Source: an uncultured virus (IMG/VR IMGVR_UViG_3300033562_000715)
Taxonomy: Duplodnaviria > Heunggongvirae > Uroviricota > Caudoviricetes
Reading direction: 5' to 3' (one strand)
IMG/VR virus record: IMGVR_UViG_3300033562_000715
DNA: 64,000 nucleotides
The notes beneath the pieces were generated by a model. That model was not told where the DNA came from. It searched no databases and saw only the letters and a program-made list of their open reading frames with translations. A program made the translations under genes and the position numbers. Below, in pieces: positions 30,748 to 55,077 of this stretch. Each line of letters starts with the position of its first letter. The stretch's first letter is position 1.

Positions 30748-31089
30748 TTGGCAAATATGTGTAATGTAGAGAACTTGGTAAAGGTTTCTGAAAGGATTAG
30801 AAGTAATTTAAACTTTGGTTTTGTTACCTTAGATGGTGATAGGGTATGTGAGCATTGTGGAGCTATCTTACCTAAAGGAACAGACTGTATTAAGTTTTAC
30901 AGAAAGAGTAAAGAAGGACGTAAGTTGAGTATTTACACCTGTGATGCTTGTTATGAACTTCAATGGGGTATTGTTAATGCTAAAAGACTCTTAGATAAGT
31001 ATATGACTATTGCTTGTCAGGATATATTGGCTGAGGTTGTTGAAGAATATGAAAGTAAGGATTATAGAAGGGTAGGTTGTAAAGGTTAA
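30748..31089 (+). CDS. Zn-finger protein, paralog 1
   Basis: CEHCG..LPKGTDC...YTCDAC. Confidence 0.7.
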   Translation: MANMCNVENLVKVSERIRSNLNFGFVTLDGDRVCEHCGAILPKGTDCIKFYRKSKEGRKLSIYTCDACYELQWGIVNAKRLLDKYMTIACQDILAEVVEEYESKDYRRVGCKG

Positions 31090-31126
31090 CACTGTATTCT
31101 TTATAAGAAAGGGTTGAGAGGTTATT

Positions 31127-31474
31127 ATGTTGGAAAATATAAATGAGTATAAGAAACATGTGGGTACAGAAAACAAAAATTATTGTGTAGTCTTAATTGA
31201 GTCAGAGCAAATTTGTAAACATTGTCATTCTGTAATACCTATTGGCTCTAATTGTGTCTCAATAAATAATAAGAGTAGTAATAGGTCATGGATTTGTGAT
31301 GATTGTCTACAGTTAAAGCTTGATATTTGTGTTGCTAGATTAAGTTGTGGTATGACCCCTAATGGTGTTGTTAGTAAAGACCTTGCTACTTCTGAAGAAG
31401 TTAGAAGTCTTACGAAAGAATATGAAAACCGAGCATTTATGAATAGTATTAAACAAACAACATGGAAAGGGTAG
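31127..31474 (+). CDS. Zn-finger protein, paralog 2
   Basis: CKHCH..IPIGSNC...WICDDC. Confidence 0.7.
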   Translation: MLENINEYKKHVGTENKNYCVVLIESEQICKHCHSVIPIGSNCVSINNKSSNRSWICDDCLQLKLDICVARLSCGMTPNGVVSKDLATSEEVRSLTKEYENRAFMNSIKQTTWKG

Positions 31475-31489
31475 AAAGTAGGTTGTAAT

Positions 31490-31804
31490 ATGGGCAAGAG
31501 TGAAATAAAAGAACGTATTAATGTTTCAAAGAGTAAAAACTTCTGCTTTGTAACTGTCAGGTCTGACCACTGTTGTAAACATTGTGGTACGACTATAAAG
31601 AAAGGTACTTCTTGTTTAACTATTAATAAGAAAAAGGAAGGCAGAGCATGGTTATGTGAAGATTGTTTATCCTTATTAGTAAACATATTAGACGCAAAAG
31701 CAGACTTAGACTCAGTTTCTTTTAGTGATGAGGGTGCAGCTATGGCTTGTATTGATACAGTAGAGTCCTTGTTAGGTGAATATGAATGTAGGGGTATAGA
31801 ATGA
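31490..31804 (+). CDS. Zn-finger protein, paralog 3
   Basis: CKHCG..IKKGTSC...WLCEDC. Confidence 0.7.
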   Translation: MGKSEIKERINVSKSKNFCFVTVRSDHCCKHCGTTIKKGTSCLTINKKKEGRAWLCEDCLSLLVNILDAKADLDSVSFSDEGAAMACIDTVESLLGEYECRGIE

Positions 31805-32565
31805 GAATAGATGAATTAACACCAATAGAGTATTATGAAAATGAAGGTATTTGGCTAAAGAGAGATGACCTCTTTGAAATCTGTGGGGTAAAAGGTGGTA
31901 AAAGTCGTTCTGCTTATCAAGTAATTCAACAGTTAATTGAGAGTGGTCATACTACTATTGTAACAGCAGGAAGTAGACAATCTCCACAATGTGAGATTGT
32001 TAGTTATATTTGTGAAGATTTGGGTATAGCTTGTAAGGTTTTCATGCCTAGAGGTCAGGATACATCGGTTATAGAACATATCAACCAAAATAAAAATACT
32101 GAGATAGTGAGAGTAACTTGTGGGTATAACAATGTGATTGTTGCTAGAGCAAGAGAATATGCTAAAGACCGTAACTATGGATATGTTCCTTTTGGAATGG
32201 AATGTGCTGAGAATGTAGAAGTTACAAGTAAACAGGTTGTTAACTTACCAAAGGAAGCTAAACGATTAGTAATGCCAGTTGGTAGTGGTATGAGTTTTTC
32301 TTCTGTAGTTACAGGGTTAGTTAGAGAGGGTATTACTTTACCAGTCTTAGGTGTAAGAGTTGGTAAAGACCCTACAAAGATTATCCAAGAATATGCAGAT
32401 GGTATAGATTTTATAGACTATACAATAGCAACTAGTCAACATGCGTATCACAATGAAATAGAAGCTTATGTAGGAGGGGTAAACCTTGACCCAATATATG
32501 AAGCTAAATGCAGGGAGTATTTAAAAGAGGGTGACTGCTTATGGATTGTTGGTCATCGTGTATAA
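31801..32565 (+). CDS. PLP-dependent fold-type II enzyme (ACC deaminase/D-cysteine desulfhydrase-like)
   Basis: LTPIE...WLKRDD...GGKSR (PLP Lys), PVGSGMS phosphate loop, LDPIYEAK. Confidence 0.8.
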   Translation: MRIDELTPIEYYENEGIWLKRDDLFEICGVKGGKSRSAYQVIQQLIESGHTTIVTAGSRQSPQCEIVSYICEDLGIACKVFMPRGQDTSVIEHINQNKNTEIVRVTCGYNNVIVARAREYAKDRNYGYVPFGMECAENVEVTSKQVVNLPKEAKRLVMPVGSGMSFSSVVTGLVREGITLPVLGVRVGKDPTKIIQEYADGIDFIDYTIATSQHAYHNEIEAYVGGVNLDPIYEAKCREYLKEGDCLWIVGHRV

Positions 32566-32718: not shown

Positions 32719-33687
32719 ATGAAAAAGAAAATTGTAGAATTATTACTTGCACTTACATGTGTAGCAGTATTATTTGTAGGTTGTGGTAAGGAAACAGCAA
32801 CCACAAAGAAACCAGTTGTAAAGGTGGAACAGACGGCTAAAGAGAAGGTCGAAAAGAATAAACCAACTAAAGTATCAAGAGAAACTTTCTATGCTACTCA
32901 GGACGGTGTTCCAATTCATAATCTAGCAGATGCAAACAGCCCAGTAATTACAACTCACAAATTAAATGATGAAATCAAAATCTTCGGGGTAGAAGAAAAT
33001 GGTTTCCGTAAAGTAGAAGTAGCAATAGATGAAGCAATGGGGTTTGTAGATTCCAAGCTTATATCTAAAGAAAAGGTTTCTACTTCTGCAAGTGCTAATC
33101 AAACACAAGTACCAACACCAGAAACACCAGCAACTCCTAACACGTCAACAACTACTACTACAAAACCTAGTACTTCAACAACTACTACAAAACCTAGTAC
33201 TTCAACAACTACACCAACTAAACCTAGCACCTCGACAACTAAACCAGCACCAACCCCAGCCCCAGCCCCAGCTCCAACACCAGCTCCGACACCAACCCCA
33301 GCTCCAACTCCATCAAATCCAGTATTTGACCACCCAGAACTATACGTTCCAATTCCACAAGGTTGGAATACTCATAACTCAGTTTGCAGTTCTAAGTTAA
33401 ATGCAGAACAGAAAGCTCAAATTGATGCTTGGGTAAATAGTTGGAAGAGCGGTGGATTATCAAGTGACTCTCTTAAGACTACCATACAGAAATATTTAAA
33501 TCTTCAGGGTGTTCTCTATGTAAATGTACTTATAAATAAAGGAAACTTTATTGCTACATCCTTAAGCGACACCACAGAATCAATATGCTATGGAATATAC
33601 GATATGGCAGCTGAGTATAGCACTGGTGTAAAAGACCCGAATAGCAACACAACTAAATGTATTGACTATGAAATATCTATTTATTAA
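32719..33687 (+). CDS. Lipoprotein with SH3b domain and Pro/Thr-rich linker
   Basis: Lipobox LFVGC, SH3b-like segment ending GFVDSKLIS, KPSTSTTT and PAPT repeats. Confidence 0.8.
   Translation: MKKKIVELLLALTCVAVLFVGCGKETATTKKPVVKVEQTAKEKVEKNKPTKVSRETFYATQDGVPIHNLADANSPVITTHKLNDEIKIFGVEENGFRKVEVAIDEAMGFVDSKLISKEKVSTSASANQTQVPTPETPATPNTSTTTTTKPSTSTTTTKPSTSTTTPTKPSTSTTKPAPTPAPAPAPTPAPTPTPAPTPSNPVFDHPELYVPIPQGWNTHNSVCSSKLNAEQKAQIDAWVNSWKSGGLSSDSLKTTIQKYLNLQGVLYVNVLINKGNFIATSLSDTTESICYGIYDMAAEYSTGVKDPNSNTTKCIDYEISIY
33130..33312 (+). repeat. Coding low-complexity repeats (KPSTSTTTT; PA/PT)
   Basis: acaaaacctagtacttcaacaact duplicated; ccagcc/ccaaca units. Confidence 0.8.
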
Positions 33688-33703
33688 GAAAGGAAAGGAT
33701 AAC

Positions 33704-35947
33704 ATGAAGGCTTTATGTAAAAAATGTATCATTGGTACATTAATAGTTTTAATGACTCTTGGGGTGGTTGCATTGCAGCCACCTCAAAAAGCGTCTGCAG
33801 CTAGCCCTCCACCTTGGACATATGACCCAGTAGCTTTTTATACAGACTTTGGAAGTAGAAACAAAATTGCCTATTTGGATAGCGAATTCTACTTTGGTGG
33901 TAAATCAAAGTTGGCTCAAGATTCAAAAAACACTTGGTTATATAGAACCGTAGGTTATAAAGTAACTATTACAACAAAAAGTTATACTGTCTCAGTCTCA
34001 ATACCAGTAACAGGGGGTATTGTAAAAACTGTAAACCAATACCCAAGTGGTGGTTATCATTATCAATTAAACAAATTTACCTTACGCAATTTAATAAAAG
34101 AAATAAATAAAGTAAACAGTGATGCAGGTACTGAATTTAGTACTTATGGTGGAACTATCATTGTGGATAACTGGATGACAGTCATTGCTTGTGATTCAAA
34201 GGGTAGACAAACACCTTGGGGTAGCATGGATGCTAATGGTGTTCCTCACGATGTGGTCTATGATACTTGGGATGGGATTACTCATGCTCTTGATGGCATT
34301 GGTCATCACTGGTCGGACTATGGCAAATCCTTAGAAAGCTATTATGGAAACAAAGTAGAGTATAAATCCGACCTCACATCAGGGCAAACTGTATATGCAA
34401 GGTTTCAGCTAGAGAATGGTGGTTACAGTGGGTATTATGAGAAAATAAATGATAACTTTCTTATTGGTGCTACAGTGTATTGGAGACAACCCCCTGATGA
34501 TTGCTATAAAGAAACCATAGTTTCCTATGTAGCTGATGGGCAGCGTAAAGTATATGTCGACGTTCCTAGAAATTCTTATACACAAAGGTCTTATGTAGCT
34601 TATCAGGATGAAAATGGTAACTACAGTAATTGGCTTTTAATGGACACAAAAACACCTTTTTATGGTGCAAACTACAAATGGTCTTTTGCAGGTGATACTT
34701 TAAACAACCCTATTTCAGTAAACTATACTGTTACAGGAGCGAAAGACAACTACATTAAGATTCCTAGAAAGCAGTTTGAACTAACCTTAAACAAGGATGA
34801 TGGTATTGCTACTGTTACAGGTGGTGGTAAATACTATGTAGGTCAAACGGTTAACATCAACGCAACTCTTAAACCAGAGGGTGTTAAATGGAAAGGTTGG
34901 GAGGGTAATGAATTTCCTTTTTCCCAGTCATACTCCTTTGTAATGCCTAATAACATCCTAACTTATAAAGCCACAACTCAACCTTGCATCTATGTTCTTG
35001 ACTTTGATGGAAATGGTGCAACAGAAGGTTCAATGGATTCTTTACCAGTTAAGTATAAAGATTTACTAAAACTCCCTAAGAATCAATTCCAACGTAAACT
35101 AGTACCATGTACCTTTGTAGGTTGGCATACTAACCGTGATAGCATGGTTCAGCAATACACAGATGAACAAACTATTACAATTGCTGACTTAATAAAAGCA
35201 GCAAATGTTACTAACACGGATGCAAGACTTACTCTTTATGCGATTTGGGATGAAGCACCAGGCTTTATAGTAACGGAGTCAATGGACAGATACTTTACTT
35301 TAGACGAAGCTAAACAGGGTATTATTACAGAGAGAGAACTATTATCAACGGTAAAAGCGACGGATAAAGAAACTGTTCCTTTGATTCAAAAAACTAAAGA
35401 GGACATTATAGTATCAGGAAATGATATAGGTATTACAACATTAGGGTATCAAGCATCTGACTTTACAACTCTTAAAAACGAAGCAGTTATTTCTCAATTG
35501 TATCAAGTAAAAGATGAAGCAGGCAATAAAGAACTATTAGCAGTTAATGTACATGTTATCAACAATACTCCAGTTGTTGTATCTACTCGTTTTAGAAGTA
35601 TTGAGGGTAAATATCTGTACAAGGGTTATGAAGCTAATCTTAAACTTCCAATGGATCAACGAAAGCGTGCAGAAGACTTATTACTACAAGAACCAGAAAA
35701 AGGAGGTTTAAGGGTAGATAGTTTTTGGAGAACTCATCGTTCGCAATTAGACCAGATATATAACCAAGAAATAAAAGATGAACCCCCTATAAGAGTTGTG
35801 CGTGTAGGCAAAGAAACCTTACAGAAACTTAAGACTGATTTAAAAGAGAATAAGGTAGACTATATTAATATTAACCGTGGTTCAGATTTTAAGTTTAGCA
35901 AACCTGAAGGTGCAAATTATGAAGTATTAGAATACATTCGTAAATAG
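33704..35947 (+). CDS. Secreted adhesin-like protein with InlB B-repeat (Flg_new-like) domains
   Basis: Signal peptide; TVTGGGKY.VGQTVNINA...WKGW and FDGNGAT.GSM...FVGW...LYAIW repeats. ATG 33704 follows GAAAGGA. Confidence 0.7.
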   Translation: MKALCKKCIIGTLIVLMTLGVVALQPPQKASAASPPPWTYDPVAFYTDFGSRNKIAYLDSEFYFGGKSKLAQDSKNTWLYRTVGYKVTITTKSYTVSVSIPVTGGIVKTVNQYPSGGYHYQLNKFTLRNLIKEINKVNSDAGTEFSTYGGTIIVDNWMTVIACDSKGRQTPWGSMDANGVPHDVVYDTWDGITHALDGIGHHWSDYGKSLESYYGNKVEYKSDLTSGQTVYARFQLENGGYSGYYEKINDNFLIGATVYWRQPPDDCYKETIVSYVADGQRKVYVDVPRNSYTQRSYVAYQDENGNYSNWLLMDTKTPFYGANYKWSFAGDTLNNPISVNYTVTGAKDNYIKIPRKQFELTLNKDDGIATVTGGGKYYVGQTVNINATLKPEGVKWKGWEGNEFPFSQSYSFVMPNNILTYKATTQPCIYVLDFDGNGATEGSMDSLPVKYKDLLKLPKNQFQRKLVPCTFVGWHTNRDSMVQQYTDEQTITIADLIKAANVTNTDARLTLYAIWDEAPGFIVTESMDRYFTLDEAKQGIITERELLSTVKATDKETVPLIQKTKEDIIVSGNDIGITTLGYQASDFTTLKNEAVISQLYQVKDEAGNKELLAVNVHVINNTPVVVSTRFRSIEGKYLYKGYEANLKLPMDQRKRAEDLLLQEPEKGGLRVDSFWRTHRSQLDQIYNQEIKDEPPIRVVRVGKETLQKLKTDLKENKVDYININRGSDFKFSKPEGANYEVLEYIRK

Positions 35948-36020: not shown

Positions 36021-36179
36021 ATGAAAGAGATTTTTGAACAATACGGACCAGCCATTATTGTAGCTTTTGTTATTATTGCGTTGTTAGGAATAGTAATTGC
36101 AGCGTTTAAGTTGCCAGTCTTAACAGGTTTCTTATCAAACTTAATAGGTGATTTCATGACAGCAGCAGGACTTTCGTAG
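36021..36179 (+). CDS. 52-aa Flp-like major pilin candidate, not in the track
   Basis: AAAGGAGG RBS; MKEIFEQYGPAIIVAFVIIALLGIVIAAFKLPVLTGFLSNLIGDFMTAAGLS*; own terminator; directly upstream of cpaF. Confidence 0.75.
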   Translation: MKEIFEQYGPAIIVAFVIIALLGIVIAAFKLPVLTGFLSNLIGDFMTAAGLS

Positions 36180-36209
36180 GTAACTAAGATTGTCAAATTC
36201 AGTATTACA

Positions 36210-36242
36210 AGAAAAGGCACAATCTTATATTGTGCTTTTTCT
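36210..36242 (+). terminator. Rho-independent terminator after the pilin candidate
   Basis: agaaaaggcacaat-cttat-attgtgctttttct. Confidence 0.75.
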
Positions 36243-36419
36243 GTTGTAAACTGAGAAAGTAAAATTTAAAGGTTTTTCTACTGAATTTTTTATGCTTTTA
36301 CTATAGGGTATCTTAAATTGTACTCAAAAGTAGGGTAAAAAGTTTAATATAAATATAAAACAATCTAGACTGAAATATTATATCAGTTTAAATAAATAGA
36401 ATAAAGGAGAAAGTATATT

Positions 36420-37577
36420 ATGTATGATTCAAATGGACAAGAAATAATAGTTAACGATATTGCAGAAGAGAAGATTAAAACCTTAAGTTTTAGCCCAGAG
36501 TCTTTTGGTGCATTTTGGGAATATGTATCTGATGACAACATTACAGATGTAGATTACAATGGTACTGACCTTTGGTTAACTGATACTGAGAATAACCGTA
36601 AACTAGTTTTAGACCCTTGTATAACAAGAAGGTTTGTTGAGAACTTTACAATGAGGGTAGGCAATCAAGTTTCAAAAAATCTTAATAAGAAAGAAAACCT
36701 ATTAGAGGCAGACACGGAAACATTACGTATAAGTATTATTCATGAGAGTGTAGCAGTCTCAGGTAGATCTGTATGTATTCGTAAGTCATTACCATCCGTA
36801 AGACTCACACCTCAAACTATGGTAAGCACTGAGTTTTGTAGTAGAGCTATAATGAACTTAATGGTAAATTGTGTGTTAGCAAACTTAAATACTGTTGTAG
36901 TTGGAGCAACAGGTGCAGGTAAAACAGAAGTAGCAAAGTTTATTTCGCAGTTCATACCTAATACTGATAGGGTAATAACCATAGAAGATTCCCCAGAATG
37001 GCATTACAAAAAAATTAATCCAAATCATGATTGTGTAGAACTAAGAATCAATGAAGAAATAACTTATGCTCAAGCAATAAAGAACTGTTTAAGACAGAAT
37101 CCAAAATGGATTATGTTATCTGAAGCACGTTCAGTTGAAGTTAAGTATTTAATAGAAAGTATGTCTACAGGTCATAGTTGTATTACTTCACTTCATACAG
37201 ATGATATTAGGCACGTACCTAGCAGGGTATTAAACATGATGCCAACAAGAGAAGACGCAGAAAGATTAGAAAATGATGTTTATACATTTATAAACCAAGT
37301 TCTATTAGTTAGAAAGAAACAGCTACCAGATGGTTCTGCTCGTAGATACATTGATCAATTGGGTTTCTTATATGTAAATGAAGCTAAGGAAAATGGTCTT
37401 AAATTTATTATAAAGGGTGGCGAACTTGTTTCAGATATATTACCAGATTTTATTTTAGATAAGTTTAAAATAGCAGATATTGTAAACCCTTTTGAATGTA
37501 AAGTATTAGATGATATAATAGGTGATACGTACACTTACTCACCATTACAACCCACTGGTAACCAAATATTAAAATAA
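36420..37577 (+). CDS. cpaF: CpaF/TadA pilus assembly ATPase
   Basis: ITDVDYNG, IRK, Walker A GATGAGKT, Asp box ITIED, LRQNP...SEAR, His box TGH..TSLH. Confidence 0.88.
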   Translation: MYDSNGQEIIVNDIAEEKIKTLSFSPESFGAFWEYVSDDNITDVDYNGTDLWLTDTENNRKLVLDPCITRRFVENFTMRVGNQVSKNLNKKENLLEADTETLRISIIHESVAVSGRSVCIRKSLPSVRLTPQTMVSTEFCSRAIMNLMVNCVLANLNTVVVGATGAGKTEVAKFISQFIPNTDRVITIEDSPEWHYKKINPNHDCVELRINEEITYAQAIKNCLRQNPKWIMLSEARSVEVKYLIESMSTGHSCITSLHTDDIRHVPSRVLNMMPTREDAERLENDVYTFINQVLLVRKKQLPDGSARRYIDQLGFLYVNEAKENGLKFIIKGGELVSDILPDFILDKFKIADIVNPFECKVLDDIIGDTYTYSPLQPTGNQILK

Positions 37578-37595
37578 GAAAGGATTTAGTGCATT

Positions 37596-39116
37596 ATGAA
37601 AAAACAGAAGCAATTAAAAATGAAACAAAAGAAACAAAAGAAACAACATATTTTCTTTTGGAATGTGAAGGCTCAAGTAGAGAAATTAGGTTATGAGGTT
37701 TCAACAGGATCTTTAGTATTAACATTACTATTATCAATGTTTGGATTTTTCCTTTTTGGTTTAATTATGAAACTCACTCCTATATGGTCAACACCTCTAT
37801 TGGTGATTTCCCTTTACTTCACACCTATCGTATATTACAACCTTTATAGAAATAGGTTTCAGATGCGAAGATTCTCTGATGTAAATGTGTACATTGAGCA
37901 AATGCTATATGCATTTAAGAATTCAAAGAAAATATTAAACTCATTAGAAGATGTTCGTATCCTATTTCCAAGTGGAGAGATGAGAGACCTAATGAATGAG
38001 GCTTGTGACATCATTTCTATTCCTAGTATGGAAAATATGGATGAGGATGTGGAACTAAAGGCTCTTAAGCTAATTGAAGACCATTACAACAATGAGCACA
38101 TTAGAAGTATGCATAGATTCTTATTGAGTGTACAACGTATCGGTGGTGAATTTGATTTACCCCTTGCATTATTACTAAAAAGTAGAGATTCATGGCATAG
38201 TCGTACAGTAAAATTACAAGAACAAAGAAAGCTTAAAAGGGGCGAGATACTTGGTTCATGTATTGCAGCATCCTTGATTTGTATCTCACTATTGTACATC
38301 TTACCACCAGATGTTACTATTGCTACATTATTACCAGTACGTATTGCTCATATTGCAATGGTGTTCTTTATGGGTAAAATTTACTTAAAGGCAGTAAGAA
38401 AGCTATCTTCAGACTTGTTATTACAAAGAGAAGCAAAAAGTGCTGAAAAGCTAAGAACTGATTACTTTAGTTTTATTAACTATAATCCAAGGAAAGAATT
38501 CAAGAAGAGTATTTTGTACACCTTAATACCACTTGCTCTTGCTATCTTAAACTTCTTTGTAATTAAAGTAAATGTAGTATACATGGTTGCAGCAATATTA
38601 GCTATTATAACATTATGCCAGCATATGTTAGGTCATTCTTTATTGGGTAAACGCTTAAATCGTGAGATTTCTCTTGCATTTCCACAATGGTTGTTAGAAC
38701 TTACATTACTTTTACAGTCAGATAACGTTCAGGTATCTATCTTTAAAACTGTAGGTACAGCATTACCTATTATGCAACCTGAATTAGAAAAGTTAAAAGC
38801 AAGTTTGTTAGAAACACCAAGTAGTCCAGAGCCATTCTTACATTTCTTCATAGACTTTAATCTTCCTGAGATTACAACTTCAATGCAGATGCTCTATGCT
38901 TTGTCTATAGGTAGTGGTGGTGACTCTAAAGAACAAATTGCTAATATTGTAGAACGTAACAATAATAGCTTAGATAGAGCTGAAACAAAATTAAATGATG
39001 ATTCTATTGCAGGATTATATGCATTGTTTTTATCACCTATGTTGGTAAGTAGTGCAGTTTTAATGTTAGATATGTCACTTTTCTTAGTAAATTATATTAC
39101 AAAGTTAACACTGTAA
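37596..39116 (+). CDS. Fused TadB-TadC-like pilus platform protein
   Basis: 506 aa with two T2SSF-like halves (YIEQMLYAFK..KILNSLE; FPQWLLELTLLLQS.NV..SI) separated by TM bundles; follows cpaF. Confidence 0.7.
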   Translation: MKKQKQLKMKQKKQKKQHIFFWNVKAQVEKLGYEVSTGSLVLTLLLSMFGFFLFGLIMKLTPIWSTPLLVISLYFTPIVYYNLYRNRFQMRRFSDVNVYIEQMLYAFKNSKKILNSLEDVRILFPSGEMRDLMNEACDIISIPSMENMDEDVELKALKLIEDHYNNEHIRSMHRFLLSVQRIGGEFDLPLALLLKSRDSWHSRTVKLQEQRKLKRGEILGSCIAASLICISLLYILPPDVTIATLLPVRIAHIAMVFFMGKIYLKAVRKLSSDLLLQREAKSAEKLRTDYFSFINYNPRKEFKKSILYTLIPLALAILNFFVIKVNVVYMVAAILAIITLCQHMLGHSLLGKRLNREISLAFPQWLLELTLLLQSDNVQVSIFKTVGTALPIMQPELEKLKASLLETPSSPEPFLHFFIDFNLPEITTSMQMLYALSIGSGGDSKEQIANIVERNNNSLDRAETKLNDDSIAGLYALFLSPMLVSSAVLMLDMSLFLVNYITKLTL

Positions 39117-39128
39117 GGGGGTTTTATA

Positions 39129-39503
39129 ATGAAAGAAATATTTGAAGCAATATTGGGTATATTTCTTATAACTCTAATGTTAGTTGGTTCATTGTCTTGT
39201 ATATCTGCATCAATTGATGCAAAAAACGCAGATGCAACTAAAACCGCTTACATCTCAGAATTAGAGAATAGTAACTACTCAAAAGAAATTATGACCAAGA
39301 TATTCGAAGACGCAGCAAAACGTAATTATCAAGTAAAACTAGCAATTTATGATTCGCACACTGTAAAGTTAGCATCTAGTGCAGCTGAGTTGCCAGCAGA
39401 GACCTTAAATGTATATATGGTTAGGGTAGATTTAAAATTCAACTATACTGTAAAGTTATTAAATATTGTAGAACCGCAAACCGTAACAGGTTATGCGAGA
39501 TAG
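39129..39503 (+). CDS. Minor pilin-like protein (TadE/F-like)
   Basis: MKEIFEAILG plus hydrophobic helix; C-terminal beta strands. Confidence 0.6.
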   Translation: MKEIFEAILGIFLITLMLVGSLSCISASIDAKNADATKTAYISELENSNYSKEIMTKIFEDAAKRNYQVKLAIYDSHTVKLASSAAELPAETLNVYMVRVDLKFNYTVKLLNIVEPQTVTGYAR

Positions 39504-39512
39504 GGGTAGCAT

Positions 39513-39614
39513 ATGAAAACAATACTTAGTGAGTTCGGTTTAAGTCTTGTATATTTAGCTTTAGCTTGTGCATTTATTAAGCTTTTACTTTATTTTTTAG
39601 CACAGATTACTTAA
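39513..39614 (+). CDS. 33-aa pilin-like peptide, not in the track
   Basis: AGGGG RBS; MKTILSEFGLSLVYLALACAFIKLLLYFLAQIT*. Confidence 0.6.
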   Translation: MKTILSEFGLSLVYLALACAFIKLLLYFLAQIT

Positions 39615-39630
39615 AGAAAGGGGTAAAGTC

Positions 39631-39768
39631 ATGGAAGAAATGTTTGAAACTTTTGGGCAAGCAATATTAACTGTAGTAGCAAGTAGTACTCTTGTAGTAA
39701 TAAGTACTGCACTATTTTACAACTTGATTGTACCATTTATTAATAATATGTTACAACAACTAATTTAA
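39631..39768 (+). CDS. 45-aa pilin-like peptide, not in the track
   Basis: AAGGGG RBS; MEEMFETFGQAILTVVASSTLVVISTALFYNLIVPFINNMLQQLI*. Confidence 0.62.
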   Translation: MEEMFETFGQAILTVVASSTLVVISTALFYNLIVPFINNMLQQLI

Positions 39769-39781
39769 GGAGACCTATATT

Positions 39782-40375
39782 ATGAGAGAGATATTAAAGC
39801 AATTTGGAGAACCACTTATAGTGGTTACAGCAGTGATTTCAATTGTAGTACTCCTATTTGTAAGTTGGAACTCATTTGACCCAAGTAAACCACCTAGTAT
39901 ATTAACCGAAATAGGCTCTGACATAACACCTTTAGCAAAGAAAGAACATGTAGAAAAGCCTATTAGTGACCTAGTAGACCAGACTAAACAGACTTCTTGT
40001 AATGCTTTTGTAAAAACCAGAGCTATTCAAGGTGATACAATACAATTTGGCACTCTATTGGGGGTAGACTGTAATGAACAACTTCTTGATGGTTCAGGAA
40101 ACCCTACAAGCTTGTTAAAATATACTTGGAATGAAACAAATAAAAGGTTTGAAGTAGGTTCATCAACTCAAAAGGGTATAGTAGAAGTCTTGAATGTGAA
40201 AGACCAAACAGGTGTACAACAATTAAGCACTTGTCTAACAACAGATGCAAGTGGGGTAAGGTCTTTTACTTTTGCTCAGTGTGGTTTATATACTATAAAA
40301 CTCAGGGTAACTACAGAGAACAAAACAACTATTTTGCTGAATATAAATGTAGCTGTAGACATTAAGAATATTTAG
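39782..40375 (+). CDS. Minor pilin-like protein with beta-sandwich C-terminus
   Basis: MREILKQFG plus TM helix; ends FTF...GLYTIKLRVT. Confidence 0.6.
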   Translation: MREILKQFGEPLIVVTAVISIVVLLFVSWNSFDPSKPPSILTEIGSDITPLAKKEHVEKPISDLVDQTKQTSCNAFVKTRAIQGDTIQFGTLLGVDCNEQLLDGSGNPTSLLKYTWNETNKRFEVGSSTQKGIVEVLNVKDQTGVQQLSTCLTTDASGVRSFTFAQCGLYTIKLRVTTENKTTILLNINVAVDIKNI

Positions 40376-40391
40376 AAAGGAAGAACAATAG

Positions 40392-41048
40392 ATGAAAACA
40401 ACCATATTTGGTGTCGCAGAGTTAATACTTCTTGTGCTTACAATCGTAATTGTTGCTAGTATTTGTAACACTCAAAACAGGGATGTTAATATTAAGGATA
40501 ACGTAAGAGAAACCTTAGAGACTTCCTTAGACATTACCCTAGAACAAAAATCATATAGTATTTCAAATATAAGTGAGTTTATAACAGATTTATCAACAAC
40601 AATGTCATCTTACTTACCTGACAATACAGAGTTAGTACTTGATGTACAATCTTTAGATAATGTAGAAGGCTTAGTTTCAGTAAAAGCAACAGTCAACTAT
40701 ACCTTAGAAAGCACTGATAAGTCTAGTAGCATACCATCTAGTATTACTTGTACTAAAACAGTATTCTTAGATAAAGAAGACCCTTTGTATTATGAAAATA
40801 TAAAGCAGGGTAAAACTTTTACATTAACTTATCAATTACCTAATGTTTTAGGAGAACCTATAACATATAAGATTTATACTTTAGTTAATGAAGAAGCTAT
40901 AAAAATACCACCAGTACCAGTAATGGATTTAAACTCATTCCAAGGTTGGAAAGACGTAAACACGGGTATTCTTTATTCTGAAGCTACTTTAAAAGCTTTA
41001 CCTTTAAGTAAGAGTTATCAGTTTATTGCAGTATTTGTACCACTATAA
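40392..41048 (+). CDS. Minor pilin-like protein with C-terminal InlB B-repeat
   Basis: MKTTIFG plus TM helix; IPPVP....FQGWKD...FIAVF. Confidence 0.6.
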   Translation: MKTTIFGVAELILLVLTIVIVASICNTQNRDVNIKDNVRETLETSLDITLEQKSYSISNISEFITDLSTTMSSYLPDNTELVLDVQSLDNVEGLVSVKATVNYTLESTDKSSSIPSSITCTKTVFLDKEDPLYYENIKQGKTFTLTYQLPNVLGEPITYKIYTLVNEEAIKIPPVPVMDLNSFQGWKDVNTGILYSEATLKALPLSKSYQFIAVFVPL

Positions 41049-41331: not shown

Positions 41332-41804
41332 TAAAGTCAAATTGTTGTTGTGCAAAGGTCATAAGAAAGGATAAAGGTGGTCAAGCTTGCTTATACTGTA
41401 GTTCTTGTGGTAAGTGGATTAAAAATGCTAACAAGGATGACCTAAGGGCTTTAGAAAACCTTAGTGTAAGTAGTTATTTATCACCTGGAGAACCAAAAAC
41501 TAAGAAGGATAATGTATTTGTTCAAGAGGGTATGATGGTTAATTCAATGTCATCTGTAATGGTTTCAAGAGACCCTAGCATGTTAGACAGCCTTATTCCT
41601 ACAGAACAGCTTACAAATCAGTTAAAAGATTTAGTATCTTATATTGATTATGCTATTAAACAGGAAGATGAACATTACCCATTATCTACTCTAGATGCAG
41701 CGAGAAAAGGTTCAAAGGTTTTTGAATTATCCAGGGTAAAAAATTCTCTTATAATGATTTTAGAAGGAAGGGGTATAAATGGTGGCGAGTTATGGAAAAG
41801 TTAA
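41328..41804 (+). CDS. N-terminal Zn-ribbon protein
   Basis: CCC...LYCSSCGKWIK. Confidence 0.6.
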   Translation: MIKSNCCCAKVIRKDKGGQACLYCSSCGKWIKNANKDDLRALENLSVSSYLSPGEPKTKKDNVFVQEGMMVNSMSSVMVSRDPSMLDSLIPTEQLTNQLKDLVSYIDYAIKQEDEHYPLSTLDAARKGSKVFELSRVKNSLIMILEGRGINGGELWKS

Positions 41805-42442
41805 AAATAGGTACAGTGGTATTAAATAATGAAACTAAACTTGAGAGTAGAATAGCTGACTTTGTAAAAAGGAATGGTTCAGATGAAGTATTTGTAGTCT
41901 TAAATGATGATAAAACTTATTCAGCTGAAGATTTTATAAAGTGTTATTCTTTAGTAGCTACAATATCTAAAGAGACTTTACCAGAATCATATGAAGTACT
42001 CTCTTGTATTCAAGACAGGGTATATGAAGTAAAAGAAAGCATTAAAGGTTCTGTAGTAACAGTATCTATTTATTCTGATGGTATACTTATTGCAGAGCGT
42101 GTTCACGATTTATCTGCAGAGCTTGTAGACGCAGGCGAAGATTATAACCCTGAAGAAGATATTGATTTCGTTGTATTGGTTAATGAAGGTAAGAATCATC
42201 ATTATGTTCACTATAGCATATCTTGGGGAATGGATTCTGATGAACTTTCTTGGGAAGGCTTTTCAGTAGTAATGGAATTTGATAACAACTGTAAGATGCT
42301 TGCTTGTGAGACCTCAAGCACATGTGATGCTGAGCAGATTCCTGAGTGGTCTTATTGGGGTGTTACTGATTCGCTTAGGAGACGTATCTTTGTAATGGGA
42401 AGGGAAATAGTAAGGAAAGAGGGTAGTAATTTTTCTCTTTAG
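41792..42442 (+). CDS. Hypothetical protein, paralog of 42542
   Basis: Shared VVTVSI..DG.....VHDLS, NEGK..HY, ISWG, W.GFSV.MEFD..CK...CETSS. Confidence 0.75.
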   Translation: MEKLKIGTVVLNNETKLESRIADFVKRNGSDEVFVVLNDDKTYSAEDFIKCYSLVATISKETLPESYEVLSCIQDRVYEVKESIKGSVVTVSIYSDGILIAERVHDLSAELVDAGEDYNPEEDIDFVVLVNEGKNHHYVHYSISWGMDSDELSWEGFSVVMEFDNNCKMLACETSSTCDAEQIPEWSYWGVTDSLRRRIFVMGREIVRKEGSNFSL

Positions 42443-42541
42443 AAATTATATAAGGAAGTTAAGGTATAGAGCTATGACTATAATAACTCTATATTAGTTA
42501 ATAAATAACTTATATTTACTAAATTTGTTTCTTTAGAGAAA

Positions 42542-43033
42542 GTGGGGTTCCAAATGATTAAAGGTTTGTTAAAGAGGGTAAAGCTAAAGGGTAGTATAAG
42601 GAAAGATAGTACAGATAAACCTATTTGTGCTATTACTCAAGAGTATACCATATCACATAGGGTAGATGGCTATGTAGTAACAGTTTCTATTTCTGTAGAT
42701 GGTGTAATAATTGAAGAGTATGTTCATGATTTATCTTTTCATTTCAGAGATATTAAAAGTGTTTATAATTTAGAAGAGGATATGGAGTTTAATCTTTTAA
42801 TAAATGAAGGAAAAAGCCAACACTATATAAGCTATGATATATCATGGGGTTTGAACTCTACTGAAGTATTATGGGTGGGTTTTTCAGTAATCATGGAATT
42901 TGATAGGAGTTGTAAATTAGTCGACTGTGAAACTTCTAGTGTAAGAGATGCTAACGAGATTATTGAGTGGTACTACCATAAACCTACGGACTCTGTTAAG
43001 GAGCTCGTATTTTATGGTGGTTCAGCATATTAA
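42542..43033 (+). CDS. Hypothetical protein, paralog of 41792
   Basis: Same motifs as 41792. Confidence 0.72.
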   Translation: MGFQMIKGLLKRVKLKGSIRKDSTDKPICAITQEYTISHRVDGYVVTVSISVDGVIIEEYVHDLSFHFRDIKSVYNLEEDMEFNLLINEGKSQHYISYDISWGLNSTEVLWVGFSVIMEFDRSCKLVDCETSSVRDANEIIEWYYHKPTDSVKELVFYGGSAY

Positions 43034-43796: not shown

Positions 43797-44054
43797 ATGG
43801 AACTCAATGAATATTGGTCAGCAAAAGTATATGAAGAGTATGTGGATATGCTAGATAAGCAGAAAATGCAAAATCATAGCTATAATTGTGAGAGAACAGC
43901 ACCTCATGTCATACATAGTGCAAAAGTGTACAAGGATGGTGACAAGTATTGTTGCTTGCTTGGAGACAATGTACAAGAGGGTATATGTGGGTTTGGAAAT
44001 ACCCCAAAAGAAGCTTGTGCAGAATTTGATAGGGTTTGGATAGAAGGTGAATAA
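43797..44054 (+). CDS. Small MGE-type hypothetical protein
   Basis: AAGGAGG RBS; LGDNVQEGICGFGNTPKEA. Confidence 0.65.
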   Translation: MELNEYWSAKVYEEYVDMLDKQKMQNHSYNCERTAPHVIHSAKVYKDGDKYCCLLGDNVQEGICGFGNTPKEACAEFDRVWIEGE

Positions 44055-44823
44055 GCAGATGAACAGTAAACTTAGTGGAACTTCAAAGGGTAACCAAGCT
44101 AAGGAATGGACTGATAATGGTTCAACTCTAATTAAATATGACTCTATTAATTGGTACGAAAGTATTTCTGAAGTACTTGTTTCAGAACTCTTAAGTCATA
44201 TTAAAGGCTTTAAGGCTGGCATAGACTATGTAGACTACACTTGGGTAAATGACAAAGGAAACTCTGCTTGTAGTTGTCAGAACTTCTTAAAAGAAGGTGA
44301 GTTTGTTATCTCTTTATACGCTTTAATTGAAGGATATAACTTTAAAGACCTTAGTGGTTTTGAGTTAAAGAATGCTATTTGTGGTATAATATTTATGGAA
44401 ACAGGTCTGAATATAGAAGAGTATCTGTCTTGTATGATGTATATAGATGCTATGGTTTTAAATGAAGACAGGCACCTGAGAAACATCTCTTTTATTTCAA
44501 ATGGAACCTCTGTAAGACTTACACCATATTATGACTTTGGCTTAAGTTTAATGTCAGATAAAACTATGTATGAAAATATAGAAGATCTTTCTTTTGTAAA
44601 GTCTCAACCATTTAGTACAGACTTTATAGAACAAGCTAATCTTTTTATCAACCCAGATATTAGGTTAGACTATGAAAAATTGGTACTTAAGCTAAACCAT
44701 GTTGTTAATCATAGTTCTTCATATATTAGTATTGAATCCAAAGCTAGTGACTTAGAGAGAGCAATTTTTGTATTATTAAGGAGATTGAGGGAAACGGAAG
44801 GTGTCTTATGGAAAAGGGTATAA
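44047..44823 (+). CDS. HipA/CtkA-family Ser/Thr kinase
   Basis: SKGNQAK Gly loop, IK, SE, catalytic NEDRHLRN, PYYDFG. Confidence 0.82.
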   Translation: MNKQMNSKLSGTSKGNQAKEWTDNGSTLIKYDSINWYESISEVLVSELLSHIKGFKAGIDYVDYTWVNDKGNSACSCQNFLKEGEFVISLYALIEGYNFKDLSGFELKNAICGIIFMETGLNIEEYLSCMMYIDAMVLNEDRHLRNISFISNGTSVRLTPYYDFGLSLMSDKTMYENIEDLSFVKSQPFSTDFIEQANLFINPDIRLDYEKLVLKLNHVVNHSSSYISIESKASDLERAIFVLLRRLRETEGVLWKRV

Positions 44824-45151: not shown

Positions 45152-45796
45152 ATGGGAGACTTTAATGGTGTTGGGGTAGACGTAGGAGAACTACGTTATG
45201 AAGGTAAGTTGGTAGGTCACCGTATTTTAATTACTTACTTAGGAGATATAGCAAAGGTCTTTGCTAGAGTAGATATGCATCTCGACCCTAAATTAAAAAG
45301 TACTTTAGAGCGTTGCAAAGAACAAGGTTTAGTTGTAAGACCTGCAGGAAAAGCTAGAGAAGGTAAATTCAATGAAAGGACAGGTACTATTTGTTTCGGT
45401 AATGACCAATACTTTATTGAATTACAGGAAGCAAAGAGTTTGATTCCTATGTTAAAGCTTGCAGCAGGTGCTAATGAAAAGCTAAGTAAAATTAAGGATA
45501 ATTTCGAAAGTATTATTTGCAATAAGATACTACTAAAGTTAAGTGAGCAGGGTATCGAAATTCCAAGTTCGAGAGACGAGCGTTTTAACGCTAGTGAACT
45601 TCAATATTCAGGTAGGTTTATTGGTGGTTTCGGTGCTTGGTCAGGTGGTGATGGAGATATCTGTGATGCCGATAAAGTTAGTAACAGGGTAACTAAAGCC
45701 TTGAAAGAAATCATTGATATATTTAATAAAGACAATGGCACAGGTGCTTATTTTCAGGTAGGTGAGAAAGCTTGGATTTATATATTTATAGAATAA
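45152..45796 (+). CDS. Hypothetical protein, paralog family X
   Basis: F.G.G.DV.EL..EG.LVGHR.L.TYLG and GEK.WIYI shared with the ORF at 46504. Confidence 0.75.
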   Translation: MGDFNGVGVDVGELRYEGKLVGHRILITYLGDIAKVFARVDMHLDPKLKSTLERCKEQGLVVRPAGKAREGKFNERTGTICFGNDQYFIELQEAKSLIPMLKLAAGANEKLSKIKDNFESIICNKILLKLSEQGIEIPSSRDERFNASELQYSGRFIGGFGAWSGGDGDICDADKVSNRVTKALKEIIDIFNKDNGTGAYFQVGEKAWIYIFIE

Positions 45797-45825
45797 GAAT
45801 AGAAGAGATTGAAGCATAAAAAACA

Positions 45826-46492
45826 TAAGAAATTAAACTAATAGTTAAATAAAAGTGTATTGGAGATGACGATGTTAGATTTGCTATAAGAAAAGGAGAA
45901 TGACAAATGGAAGCAATGAAGTTTAAAGAGGGTCAATATTATGAAGAATCAGGTAAGTATTATTATACAGTAGAGAGGATAAGGGATAATATCTTATACG
46001 TAACTGGTGAAACTTACGATTGTGATGGTGCTAATTCTTACTCGGATGAGTTTGAAATTCTCAGAGATAGTGTTGGTAATGAATATTTTATATGCAGTGA
46101 GGGTACTGTTGAGGCTAAAGAACTTTCAGGTGTAGGTATAAATGTTGCAAGATTGCTTTACAAGGGTTCTTTCATGGGTATCAGAGTTACTATATATCTT
46201 ACTAGGTTTGATCATAGTATATATTATGCAGGGGACATAAGTCTTAGTTCAAGTTCTTATTATTCTTTAAAGGATGAACTTACGAAAAACGGTTTAATGG
46301 TAAGAAACGCTACAGATATGCGAAATTGTTCTCTAAGTTTAGAAGGTGTTCTAGATAAAGAAACGGGTATTATTTCTTTTGGTCAAGATCGGTCTTATAA
46401 TGAAATAGACTCTACTGAAACTCTATTAAACCTTATAAGAAAAGTTTCTAAGAAATTAGACTAATAATTAGACAAAAGTGTATTGGAGATGA
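45826..46492 (+). repeat. 44-bp direct repeat pair (45826-45869 and 46449-46492)
   Basis: 40/44 identical by manual alignment; brackets ORF 45907. Confidence 0.85.
45907..46464 (+). CDS. Hypothetical protein; C-terminal half related to the family X N-domain
   Basis: SGVGINVARLLYKG.FMG.R and GIISFGQD resemble ORFs 45152 and 46504. Confidence 0.7.
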   Translation: MEAMKFKEGQYYEESGKYYYTVERIRDNILYVTGETYDCDGANSYSDEFEILRDSVGNEYFICSEGTVEAKELSGVGINVARLLYKGSFMGIRVTIYLTRFDHSIYYAGDISLSSSSYYSLKDELTKNGLMVRNATDMRNCSLSLEGVLDKETGIISFGQDRSYNEIDSTETLLNLIRKVSKKLD

Positions 46493-46503
46493 GGGAGACA
46501 GGT

Positions 46504-47145
46504 ATGAATGAATTTAAGGGTATTGGTTTAGATGTGTCAGAGTTAACACTAGAGGGTGTACTAGTAGGTCATAGACTATTAGTAACGTATCTTGGTAGTA
46601 TAAATAAGATATTCTCGAGAGTGGACTTGCGTTTAACTTCAGATTTTGAAAGCTTTTTAGTAGATGCACACGGTATGGGTATAGAGGTAAGAAGAGCAGG
46701 AAACCAAATAGAAGGTAAGCCTGACAAGGAACAATGTATGATTTACTTTGGTAATGACTCTTATTTTATAGAACTAGACAAATCTGTAGAGTTAGTACCT
46801 ATTTTAAAAGTAGCTCATCTTGCTTCAGAAAGGCTTAAACCTATATTAAAGGATTTTGAAATTATAATAAGAAAAGACTTACTTTTCTTCTTATACAGTA
46901 GAGGTGTAGAGTTGTCAGACAAGAGTGATGAGGTTTTTGATGCTAATAATCTTTGTTACTCTTGCAGATTCTTAGGTGGTACAGACGCATGGTCAGGTTA
47001 CAATGATATTTGTGAAGAGGGTACGCTTAATAAAAAGGTTTTAAACGCATTAATTATTTGCTTAGATGATTTTAATGAAAAATATAAAGTCACTGCATAT
47101 TATAGTATGGGTGAAAAAGGTTGGATTTATATTTATGTAAGATAG
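46504..47145 (+). CDS. Hypothetical protein, paralog family X (track start 46483)
   Basis: ATG 46504 (MNEFKG) aligns with MGDFNG of 45152; GGGAG RBS. Confidence 0.72.
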   Translation: MNEFKGIGLDVSELTLEGVLVGHRLLVTYLGSINKIFSRVDLRLTSDFESFLVDAHGMGIEVRRAGNQIEGKPDKEQCMIYFGNDSYFIELDKSVELVPILKVAHLASERLKPILKDFEIIIRKDLLFFLYSRGVELSDKSDEVFDANNLCYSCRFLGGTDAWSGYNDICEEGTLNKKVLNALIICLDDFNEKYKVTAYYSMGEKGWIYIYVR

Positions 47146-51119: not shown

Positions 51120-51130
51120 CTTATATTGGT

Positions 51131-51173
51131 TGGTGTAAGGTTTACCTGAACTAGTTGGGTAAGTCTTACACCA
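51131..51173. terminator. Long hairpin after topoisomerase B
   Basis: tggtgtaaggtttacc...ggtaagtcttacacca, followed by an A-run. Confidence 0.55.
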
Positions 51174-51185
51174 TAAAAAGAAAGG

Positions 51186-52231: not shown

Positions 52232-52330
52232 ATACTCTTATAAGAGACTAGGATGCTAGACTTCGATTTGCGTTCTGATAGTGCCTTTTCTCTTGCTTTT
52301 TCTCTATTTTGTGTGTGGTAGTAGGGGCTT

Positions 52331-52640: not shown

Positions 52641-52651
52641 GTGAAAACCTA

Positions 52652-53896: not shown

Positions 53897-53981
53897 AATA
53901 TAAAAGAAAGGCAGTTAAAATTTATAGATATTCGTATTTTCATAATATATTTATAGATTTAGCTGAAGTGTATATAAGTTT

Positions 53982-54236: not shown

Positions 54237-54249
54237 GAGGAACTAAAAT

Positions 54250-54963: not shown

Positions 54964-55077
54964 AGATAGTAAATAACCTTTACTTTTGCTATGTTATTTA
55001 TATAAATGGGTGGTTAACTAAACCCATTTATGTTAAAATATAATTATGTAGAATTTAAATAGGAGGATAAACAGTAT

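Follow-up and report, generated by a model that had tools for sequence, protein, structure and literature searches.

The window analysed here is a 64,000-nt stretch of DNA from an uncultured virus classified in Caudoviricetes (IMG/VR record IMGVR_UViG_3300033562_000715), given as one strand, 5' to 3'. Between positions 36,021 and 41,048 it carries a compact operon in which six small pilin-like genes, here called P0 to P5, accompany genes for a secretion ATPase and a polytopic membrane protein, the putative platform (Table 1). The operon resembles a Tad-like filament machine reduced to few parts, and its pilin-like proteins start with an N-terminal segment so short that how, and whether, it would be removed becomes the main question.

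An earlier note on this DNA, made from the letters alone, had picked out six pilin-like open reading frames (ORFs), and all six are present where it placed them, with the N-termini that it quoted. The shared motif that it described is equally real: every one of the six starts M-[KRE]-x-[IMT]-[FLI]..G and continues into an uncharged hydrophobic helix. Three of the six (P0, P2, and P3) are indeed shorter than 60 residues. The pattern drawn from these ORFs occurs at exactly six sites in all six frames of the 64-kb window, against a mean of 0.02 sites in 50 codon-shuffled versions. As a test of significance this comparison is circular because the pattern was derived from the same six ORFs; conservation across loci is therefore the real test, and the motif passes it. 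Library scans revealed no Pfam or NCBIfam family that covers any of the six pilin-like proteins or the platform, and P4 reaches no Pfam family at its cut-off.

Table 1. Genes of the pilus-like operon, accessory candidates and context genes in the window
Feature	Position	Strand	Length (aa)	Remarks
P0, major Flp-sized pilin	36021..36179	+	52	MKEIFEQYG, hydrophobic helix, second amphipathic helix (..F..LI..F); ORF list
Secretion ATPase, CpaF/TadA-VirB11-FlaI group	36420..37577	+	385	Pfam T2SSE 6e-25, above cut-off
Polytopic platform, PilC/GspF/TadB-C-like by predicted fold	37596..39116	+	506	no Pfam/NCBIfam match
P1, minor pilin-like protein	39129..39503	+	124	MKEIFEAILG; ORF list
P2, pilin-like mini-protein	39513..39614	+	33	MKTILSEFG and one helix; ORF list
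P3, pilin-like mini-protein	39631..39768	+	45	MEEMFETFG and one helix; ORF list
P4, minor pilin-like protein	39782..40375	+	197	MREILKQFG; ORF list
P5, minor pilin-like protein	40392..41048	+	218	MKTTIFG, shortest leader, no Glu at +5; ORF list
Large Sec-signal repeat protein, Listeria-Bacteroides/InlB-B-type repeats	33662..35947	+	761	Flg_new 7.7e-5, Flg_new_2 1.3e-4, just under cut-offs
Lipoprotein-like protein, Thr/Pro-rich linker	32719..33687	+	322	signal sequence with Cys (..LFVGCGKE); no family match
VirB4-like ATPase (context, outside pilus operon)	20467-22566	+		CD1110 family 6.8e-9, far below cut-off; DUF87/HerA 1.9e-5
FtsK/EssC-type ATPase (context)	23738-26002	+		FtsK_SpoIIIE 1.9e-7
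NlpC/P60 wall hydrolase, C-terminal membrane segments (context)	29179-30270	+		NLPC_P60 3.6e-16

The platform protein has 96 relatives in a large protein collection, mostly metagenomic; in the same collection the window's own copy sits on a 145.5-kb contig, and the metagenome contigs of its closest relatives reach 228 kb. We used an alignment of 20 platform relatives (A1) to search contigs from one genome per species. This search yielded 164 confirmed related loci, of which the best 80 were kept, nearly all of them from Lachnospiraceae. Cultured carriers include Anaerosporobacter mobilis, [Clostridium] fimetarium, Lachnoclostridium phytofermentans, and Eubacterium oxidoreducens. The platform was found in 43 of 301 genomes sampled evenly from Lachnospiraceae. 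Several copies of the whole system can share a genome, as in C. fimetarium, which has three platform genes, and E. oxidoreducens, which has two. It is a system particular to Clostridia of the Lachnospiraceae type and the mobile elements they carry. No DNA-level relatives of the window were found in phage or plasmid collections, a search of IMG/VR with the ATPase returned no relatives, and protein-level matches on plasmids are distant (26-30% identity).

Gene order is well preserved: one or two tandem copies of P0 precede the ATPase and the ~500-residue platform, P1, P2, P3, P4, and P5 follow in this order, and a gene for a large protein with a Sec signal is usually present. The ATPase gene lies directly before the platform gene in every locus that reaches far enough. 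Enough flanking DNA, set at 700 nt or more ahead of the ATPase match and 2600 nt or more beyond the platform match, is present in 58 loci. In these, calling the families by length and position, a crude rule that misfiles some P4 and P5 genes, we found P0 directly upstream of the ATPase in 56 loci, P1 in 55, P2 in 53 (as an ORF of 30-42 residues at the same position), P3 in 47, P4 in 52, and P5 in 40; all six families occur together in 25. P0 is duplicated in tandem, with an identical or nearly identical protein, in loci L016, L018, L022-L026, L029-L031, and L033. Two metagenome loci, L138 and L139, share 51% platform identity with the window as well as its own layout, with the gene for a large repeat protein upstream of P0. 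A cluster on the enterococcal plasmid pZB18 was considered as a further copy and rejected because its layout differs; it has two shorter downstream genes and a TrbC/VirB2 gene.

One locus stands apart. An 83-kb contig labelled 'Bacteriophage sp.' (MT835474.1; L001:7317-7893) has two tandem major-pilin genes before an ATPase 42% identical to that of the window. These pilins start MKETVAHILEIAVVV; position 10 is a Glu, Gly is missing from positions 9-10, and the usual minor-pilin set is absent after the platform gene. Their processing is explained by none of the readings considered below.

Comparison of the N-termini across about 80 fetched syntenic ATPase loci, a check that the earlier note had proposed, shows that the same motifs recur at the matching gene positions of the operon. 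Among distinct orthologues the P0 family follows M-[KQE]-[EDV]-[IF]-[FILM]-[EK]-[EQK]-Y-G. In an alignment of 30 major pilins (A2), M1 is invariant, Y8 is present in at least 90%, and Gly stands at residue 9 or 10 in all 30; these are two-helix proteins of Flp size in which the ..F..LI..F pattern of the second helix is conserved. The motifs of P2, P3, and P4 resemble that of P0, with Gly as residue 9 in 42 of 54, 42 of 51, and 44 of 63 distinct orthologues, respectively. P1 has its own version, M-x-x-[VI]-[IF]-K-x-[FY]-x-G-x-F-F, which contains no Glu and keeps the Gly in 62 of 65. The P5 motif, M-K-x-[VI]-x-[FY]-G, is the shortest, and its Gly is residue 7 in 27 of 36. A Gly followed by a hydrophobic helix is conserved, and the segment before it is acidic, not basic.

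The start codons are well defined. No upstream start would give a longer leader: an in-frame stop lies a median of 5-15 codons before the Met, in most family members nothing between the two could serve as another start, and in many loci a stop codon precedes the ATG of the pilin genes by only 1-3 codons. A Shine-Dalgarno-like sequence stands ahead of most pilin-family starts (starts in related loci were called by a custom script). Conserved upstream starts that supply normal leaders, the result that the earlier note had named as one that would speak against its view, do not exist. An apparent N-terminal extension of the pilin in L138 and L139 (MSTALKG..) was rejected as the ribosome-binding region read in frame; L138 has a TTG at the exact site of the L139 ATG, 10 nt behind GGAGG.

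The ATPase places the operon near type IV filament machines. Its NCBIfam matches are to VirB11 (8e-29), the TadA family (9e-24), and FlaI (1e-18), all below the curated cut-offs; the score against the VirB11 equivalog is 100.6 bits, the cut-off being 249.95. Among PDB sequences CpaF (1.5e-19) and a VirB11-like protein (3.3e-19) match equally well, and FlaI is found too. The operon therefore encodes the hexameric secretion ATPase of the PilB/GspE/CpaF/FlaI kind that marks the type IV filament superfamily. Its partners are a PilC-like platform and pilin-like proteins, which sets it apart from a VirB/D4-type type IV secretion system (T4SS).

The platform was assigned by predicted fold. It has no T2SSF match in Pfam, and the A1 profile has no sequence match in the PDB. 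Its AlphaFold2 (AF2) model has a mean predicted local distance difference test score (pLDDT) of 84 and a predicted template modelling score (pTM) of 0.72. A VIA-align search of 48,161 chains aligned this model to the N-terminal domain of PilC (2whn_B, Z 8.5, root-mean-square deviation (rmsd) 2.5, 98 of 103 residues), to a PilC model (3jc8_Ca, Z 7.6, 257 residues), and to EpsF (2vma_A, Z 7.3, rmsd 3.3, 119 of 122 residues). PilC/GspF entries make up three of the top eight matches, in a Z range that the tool flags as possibly trivial for helical proteins. The top Foldseek match is again 3jc8_Ca, the PilC chain of a type IVa machine model, at an E of only 0.28; at E <= 0.001 Foldseek found no match for the platform or for the P1 model. 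Because Z values of this size can be trivial for helical proteins, the models give good but not conclusive support for a platform of the PilC/GspF type.

The model of P1 (pLDDT 95) has the layout of a pilin: residues 2-47 form one continuous helix, and another helix and a sheet of four strands complete the fold. In its VIA search 12 of the top 50 matches are type IV pilins or pseudopilins, including GspK, PilX, PilV, PilE, Thermus pilins, the gonococcal pilin, and EpsI/J, with Z values of only 4.6-5.8. The ESM Atlas returned unnamed clusters and DUF6133, the latter at a score of 0.80, below the tool's lead threshold; no member of A2 matches DUF6133 in Pfam. Three of the 30 major pilins in A2 weakly match a different Pfam family, DUF4244 (best E 0.021). 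DUF4244, a small-protein family of actinobacterial tad loci, may indicate a distant link between pilin families.

The class III signature is a Glu five residues after the Gly. Acidic residues within the hydrophobic helices of the minor pilins are practically confined to +1 and +5 from the conserved Gly. P3 has them at +1 in 26 of 51 and at +5 in 16 of 51 orthologues, with just one other, at +2, in the stretch up to +16. P4 has them at +1 in 5 of 63 and at +5, as Glu, in 6 of 63, and nowhere else up to +13. In P2 they occur at +1 in 10 of 54 and at +5 in 2 of 54, with two each at +3 and +4. MKEIFEEYG|EFVIE, from P3, and MKEIFEQYG|FGLIEF are examples of minor pilins with an acidic +5.

The hosts also have canonical Tad pilins of the Flp1_like family, which a script extracted from 25 of 35 scanned loci. 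Their leaders end in F-L-x-E-E-D-G, where Gly -1 is invariant and F -7, E -3, and D -2 are conserved to at least 90%, and the mature protein continues xGVVE. Because this canonical host leader is as conserved and as acidic, neither strong conservation nor non-basic charge argues against a leader in this lineage. When 30 major pilins were compared with the 25 canonical ones, hhalign set E-Q-Y-G on E-E-D-G and kept the two collinear to the C-terminus; the match is weak (probability 33%, E 4.6e-4). None of the 30 major pilins matches Flp_Fap or Flp1_like in Pfam at E up to 10, where a canonical host pilin, as a control, scores 8e-18. At the level of sequence, three results, namely the likeness to the canonical leader, the hhalign register, and the +1/+5 acidic pattern, favour the conserved Gly as the probable cleavage site.

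An enzyme for such a cut is missing from the window. None of its 65 ORFs scanned with Pfam matches Peptidase_A24, and a hidden Markov model built from 15 host A24 proteins gave a best E of 0.12 against the 174 stop-to-stop frames of at least 60 residues, so the earlier observation that no TadV/PilD gene lies in these 64 kb holds. The hosts tell a different story. A24 is present in 5 of 5 cultured or isolate carriers, on other contigs or 1.4 Mb from the operon, and in 47 of 50 further carriers, where incompleteness of metagenome-assembled genomes affects the three that have none. In the even sample 298 of 301 Lachnospiraceae genomes have A24, among them all 43 carriers. A24 presence is useless as a discriminator of carriers, since 255 of 258 non-carriers have it too, and with A24 so widespread among the hosts, a lack of such genes near the operon means little. 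The same hosts also encode a Flp1_like pilin in a canonical Tad locus (5 of 5 and 30 of 31 carriers). With A24 and a canonical Tad locus in these hosts, a host enzyme is therefore always available. In one canonical Tad locus (G001:C38:134932-144527), two A24 genes ~7.5 kb apart flank the Flp1_like pilin gene, and the same arrangement occurs in G012, G034, G037, and G055.

With moderate confidence, we favour a model in which the six ORFs encode the pilins of a small Tad-like (type IVc-like) filament apparatus, and a host A24 peptidase, acting in trans, removes their leaders by cutting behind the conserved Gly. Polymerisation of the 52-residue P0 would fall to one CpaF/VirB11-type ATPase and one fused PilC-like platform, with assembly starting on a priming complex of P1-P5. 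The motif M-[KQ]-[ED]-[IV]-[FIL]-x-[EQ]-[YF]-G would be a minimal class III leader of nine residues in most families, ten in P1, and seven in P5. The enzyme that makes the cut would most likely be of the A24 (TadV/PilD) type, and almost all hosts encode such peptidases next to a canonical Flp1_like/Tad locus. The large secreted repeat protein is probably an adhesin, and on mobile copies the pilus could plausibly aid cell-cell or surface contact. Such a leader would be unusual in being extremely short, fixed in length, and net acidic, and the predicted mature P0 would be unusual in having no Glu5. The operon itself is unusual in having neither tadV nor tadZ and only one platform gene.

The earlier note had proposed that the proteins are either translated as already-mature, peptidase-independent pilins or cleaved after the Gly by a different rule, and that either would define a non-canonical type IV filament subtype. 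The first proposal is not the best reading, given A24 in all 43 carriers, the acidic canonical leader, the hhalign register, and the +1/+5 acidic pattern; the lack of a peptidase in view does not imply peptidase independence because A24 is nearly universal in the hosts. The second finds no support, as the Gly/+5 acidic geometry together with a host A24 favours ordinary cleavage after Gly. The wider label of a non-canonical subtype is fair, since no Pfam or NCBIfam family covers the pilins or the platform.

Several points weigh against cleavage of these leaders by a host A24 enzyme. An A24 gene is absent within ~8 kb of the fetched loci L001-L082 (10,764 ORFs, including positions 28-48 kb of the window), whereas at the canonical Tad locus one or two such genes lie no more than ~5 kb from the pilin gene; the contrast is real but not decisive. 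The Flp pattern G|xxxxEY, noted earlier as missing, is indeed missing from the major pilin: an acidic residue stands at +5 in 0 of 43 distinct major pilins, and likewise in 0 of 62 P1 and 0 of 36 P5 proteins. The site is atypical, with an aromatic residue at -2, neither basic nor acidic, and a leader net charge of about -1. Ala or Ser replaces the Gly in some minor pilins (..EEYAS.., ..ETAAD..), and both pilins of the phage-labelled contig L001 (MKETVAHILEIAVV) are without any Gly. The hhalign match is weak and compares two mostly hydrophobic profiles, and the fold matches are modest, in a range that the tool calls a possibly common arrangement for helical proteins. Mature Flp pilins have a Gly at position 7. 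The E-Y-G of the window's pilins could, on sequence grounds, also be E5-Y6-G7 of a mature Flp pilin whose first residue comes two positions after the Met, the Flp motif having E at +5 and Y at +6 in the account of it cited here (PMC3244431).

This last point leads to the strongest rival, in which (nearly) mature subunits would be assembled without any prepilin peptidase, and Glu6/Glu7, Lys2, and the free N-terminus would take the place of Glu5. We regard it as unlikely, and its more specific form, in which x-x-x-x-E-Y-G after Met-Lys corresponds to residues 1-7 of a mature Flp pilin, as similarly doubtful. Leaderless subunits would suit the absence of A24 from the window and from the ~8-kb flanks of L001-L082, even in plasmid-like and integrated copies. 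They would also suit a Met position that is fixed in each family across ~30% sequence identity, and an N-terminal octapeptide that is the best conserved part of six otherwise unrelated paralogues. E-Y followed by G matches the order of the Flp motif as described in the cited part of the literature (E +5, Y +6; PMC3244431), no acidic residue lies at +5 from the Gly in the major pilin (0 of 43), the L001 pilins have no Gly at all, and the AF2 helix of P1 is unbroken from residue 2. However, P3 and P4 have intramembrane acidic residues precisely at +5 relative to the Gly, a spacing that has a known meaning only if the Gly is -1. The canonical host leader is just as conserved and just as acidic, hhalign sets the Gly on the canonical cleavage Gly, and the host peptidase was present in every carrier of the sample (43 of 43). 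No peptidase-free type IV filament was described in the literature searched. It is quite improbable, then, that these are the first leaderless type IV pilins, made as Met-Lys plus a mature Flp-like N-terminus (x-x-x-x-E-Y-G) with no peptidase, and that the module is self-sufficient and serves plasmids and integrative and conjugative elements (ICEs) as a mating pilus. If true, such elements could move a self-sufficient pilus module between hosts.

Two genes outside the core operon may be part of the same system. In the window the repeat-protein gene precedes the operon; most relatives have it after P5. BLAST relatives occur in 32 loci. A large protein of this kind is always close to the operon, at sizes from ~560 to more than 1800 residues; the homologue in L018 matches Flg_new_2 above the cut-off, and that in L139 matches Flg_new at 3e-11. 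We consider the protein a candidate pilus-associated adhesin, and its variation in size fits an adhesin specific to host or surface. The lipoprotein-like protein, with BLAST relatives in 17 loci, may also belong to the pilus module.

Mobile DNA is a frequent, though not a constant, setting for the module. The A. mobilis copy is part of an ICE with lysS on one side. Three DUF6462 genes, a RepA_N gene, and a ParM-like gene come before the operon; genes for a Toprim protein, MobC, a relaxase, VirD4, PrgI, a VirB4-like ATPase, and an NlpC/P60 protein follow. The T4SS genes of this element form a separate block ~10-25 kb from the operon. In 6 of 43 carrier genomes the operon's contig has a VirD4-type gene no more than 20 kb away, compared with 0.94 expected from random placement (simulation P ~2e-4). 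The remaining 37 carriers have no VirD4-type gene within 20 kb, and many loci have housekeeping neighbours. In the window itself, where the G+C content is 31-37% and all long ORFs lie on one strand, no phage structural families were found across the 64 kb. The VirB4-like ATPase, the FtsK/EssC-type ATPase, and the NlpC/P60 hydrolase (Table 1), all conjugation-like, lie just upstream of the pilus operon and outside it. Upstream of the VirB4-like ATPase a 1582-residue protein with about six predicted membrane segments (11245-15993) has no Pfam, NCBIfam, or PHROGs match; it may be the VirB6-type channel protein of a conjugation module.

These surroundings bear on a second rival, which we consider very unlikely: the operon would build no free pilus and instead form either a short pseudopilus, similar to that of type II secretion systems, that pushes the repeat protein through the wall, or an accessory of the Gram-positive conjugation channel, with the ATPase as a VirB11-type partner. 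The equal sequence scores of the ATPase against VirB11 and CpaF are consistent with this, as are the large Sec-signal protein that accompanies the operon and varies in size and sequence, the conjugation genes that neighbour the operon here and in 6 of 43 genomes, and the small size of P2 and P3, which leaves no room for a globular pilin domain. Yet the platform model matches PilC/GspF domains, with no VirB6-type protein among the matches listed, and P0 resembles Flp pilins in its size and two-helix architecture and, as befits a major subunit, is often present as tandem duplicates. The 37 of 43 genomes with no VirD4-type gene within 20 kb also argue for a role apart from conjugation channels, and Gram-positive T4SSs lack VirB11 according to the sections of a 2025 review that deal with them (PMC12857230).

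It is highly improbable that a protease other than an aspartic A24 enzyme, encoded by host or element and so far unrecognised, cuts at or near the Gly: the -2/-3 residues (aromatic, Glu/Gln) differ from the Asp and Glu of the canonical host pilin, no A24 gene is local, and L003 has a gene for a CPBP/Rce1-like intramembrane protease directly upstream of its pilin gene, but that gene occurs in this one fetched locus and not in the window, no further polytopic or protease-like protein is conserved in the operon, and a Gly at -1 with an acidic residue at +5 is the signature of A24. The CPBP/Rce1-like protein (L003:1692-2489, Pfam 6e-15) was accordingly rejected as a dedicated peptidase, being confined to that single locus and absent from the window. 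A CPBP protease gene also lies upstream of the CpaF/VirB11 cluster of pZB18.

Other genes of the window surround the operon at a greater distance. Three tandem paralogues of 104-115 residues (30748-31804), each with two Cys-x-x-Cys pairs (..CEHCGA..CDACYEL..) and no family match, sit between the NlpC/P60 gene and a gene for a PALP-fold enzyme (31801-32565). Downstream of the operon lie a paralogous pair of 216 and 163 residues (41792-43033) that share ..VVTVSI..DG..I.E..VHDLS.., and paralogues of 214, 185, and 220 residues (45152-47145) that share ..G.G.DV.EL..EG.LVGHR.L.TYLG... A protein with a HipA_C-like kinase domain is encoded between these two sets (44047-44823). The element has its own replication kit of clamp loader (5045-6349), topoisomerase II, DnaB-like helicase (57307-59124), and primase (63322-63840). 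The genes for the large and small subunits of the T4-type topoisomerase II (49071-57252; PHROG 1e-107 and 2e-77) are split by a gene for an RRXRR and HNH endonuclease (52637-53896).

Lachnospiraceae are dominant commensals of gut and rumen. About one in seven of the sampled genomes (43 of 301) carries the operon. Since the ATPase is its one component with a family in Pfam or NCBIfam, standard annotation displays a solitary 'CpaF/VirB11' gene amid hypothetical proteins. Three of the pilin genes are, besides, too short for routine gene calling. The predicted very short acidic leader and absent Glu5 would make a third design of pilin N-terminus for the Tad group. Such a system would allow a clean test of how little leader a prepilin peptidase needs, and whether a filament can manage without Glu5. 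Gram-positive conjugation is usually described as pilus-free. The placement of the operon on an ICE and on a large plasmid-like element suggests that some Gram-positive mobile elements may carry a contact pilus of their own, as IncI plasmids do in Gram-negatives.

The thin pilus of IncI/R64 and the pilus of PAPI-1 are type IVb, belong to Gram-negatives, and come with a peptidase of their own. The operons of the window and of the ICE are like them in lying beside genes for VirB4-like and coupling proteins and a wall hydrolase. By this analogy of gene neighbourhood the pilus may act in adhesion and, on the mobile copies, in mating contact; a mating role would cover a minority of carriers, 6 of 43 genomes. 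As the consulted sections of the 2025 review describe them, the IncI/R64 and PAPI-1 modules are type IV pili beside a T4SS on a mobile element and promote mating contacts; the same sections state that Gram-positive T4SSs lack VirB11 and list type IV pili on conjugative elements for Gram-negatives only (PMC12857230).

Imam et al. 2011 report Gram-positive, clostridial tad-like loci 'without any apparent prepilin signal peptide' and with no PilFind motif; the biosynthetic genes of these loci show only a remote relationship to those of other tad systems, and homologues of tadV, tadZ, and rcpC are present (PMC3244431). On that description they would differ from the operon studied here, which has no tadV, tadZ, or rcpC. 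A full-text literature search found no description of this operon.

Archaeal type IV pilins, which are class III and have no Glu5, share with the window's pilins a short leader and the lack of an acidic +5, and their ATPases are FlaI-related (compare the NCBIfam FlaI match at 1e-18). Archaeal sites have a basic residue at -2. The window's pilins have an aromatic residue there, a difference drawn from descriptions of the archaeal proteins.

The canonical Firmicute Tad locus (Flp1_like, PF16982) is alike in its two-helix pilin of 50-65 residues, its conserved acidic leader that ends in Gly, its CpaF-type ATPase and PilC-type platform, and its independence of a secretin. Its pilin differs in a leader that is longer and varies in length, and in the invariant G|xGVVE, which includes Glu5. 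The pilins of the window's operon have a leader of nine residues, and the major one lacks Glu5; the operon encodes five dedicated minor pilins and has no peptidase gene nearby. The Flp/Tad (type IVc) systems of Caulobacter and Aggregatibacter comprise CpaF/TadA, TadB, TadC, TadV, Flp, and TadE/F. With these the operon shares a single ATPase of the bifunctional type, CpaF being its nearest solved match (1.5e-19), as well as a tiny major pilin without globular domain and pseudopilins with pilin-like N-termini. Unlike them, it has no G|xxxxEY, no tadV, no tadZ (no ParA/MinD-type gene is found among the conserved operon genes), and no outer-membrane parts, and a single fused platform gene of ~500 residues replaces tadB and tadC. 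The system thus departs from Flp/Tad pili in each of the features compared, namely pilin family, G|xxxxEY, local tadV, and local tadZ, yet it would probably work like a Tad pilus.

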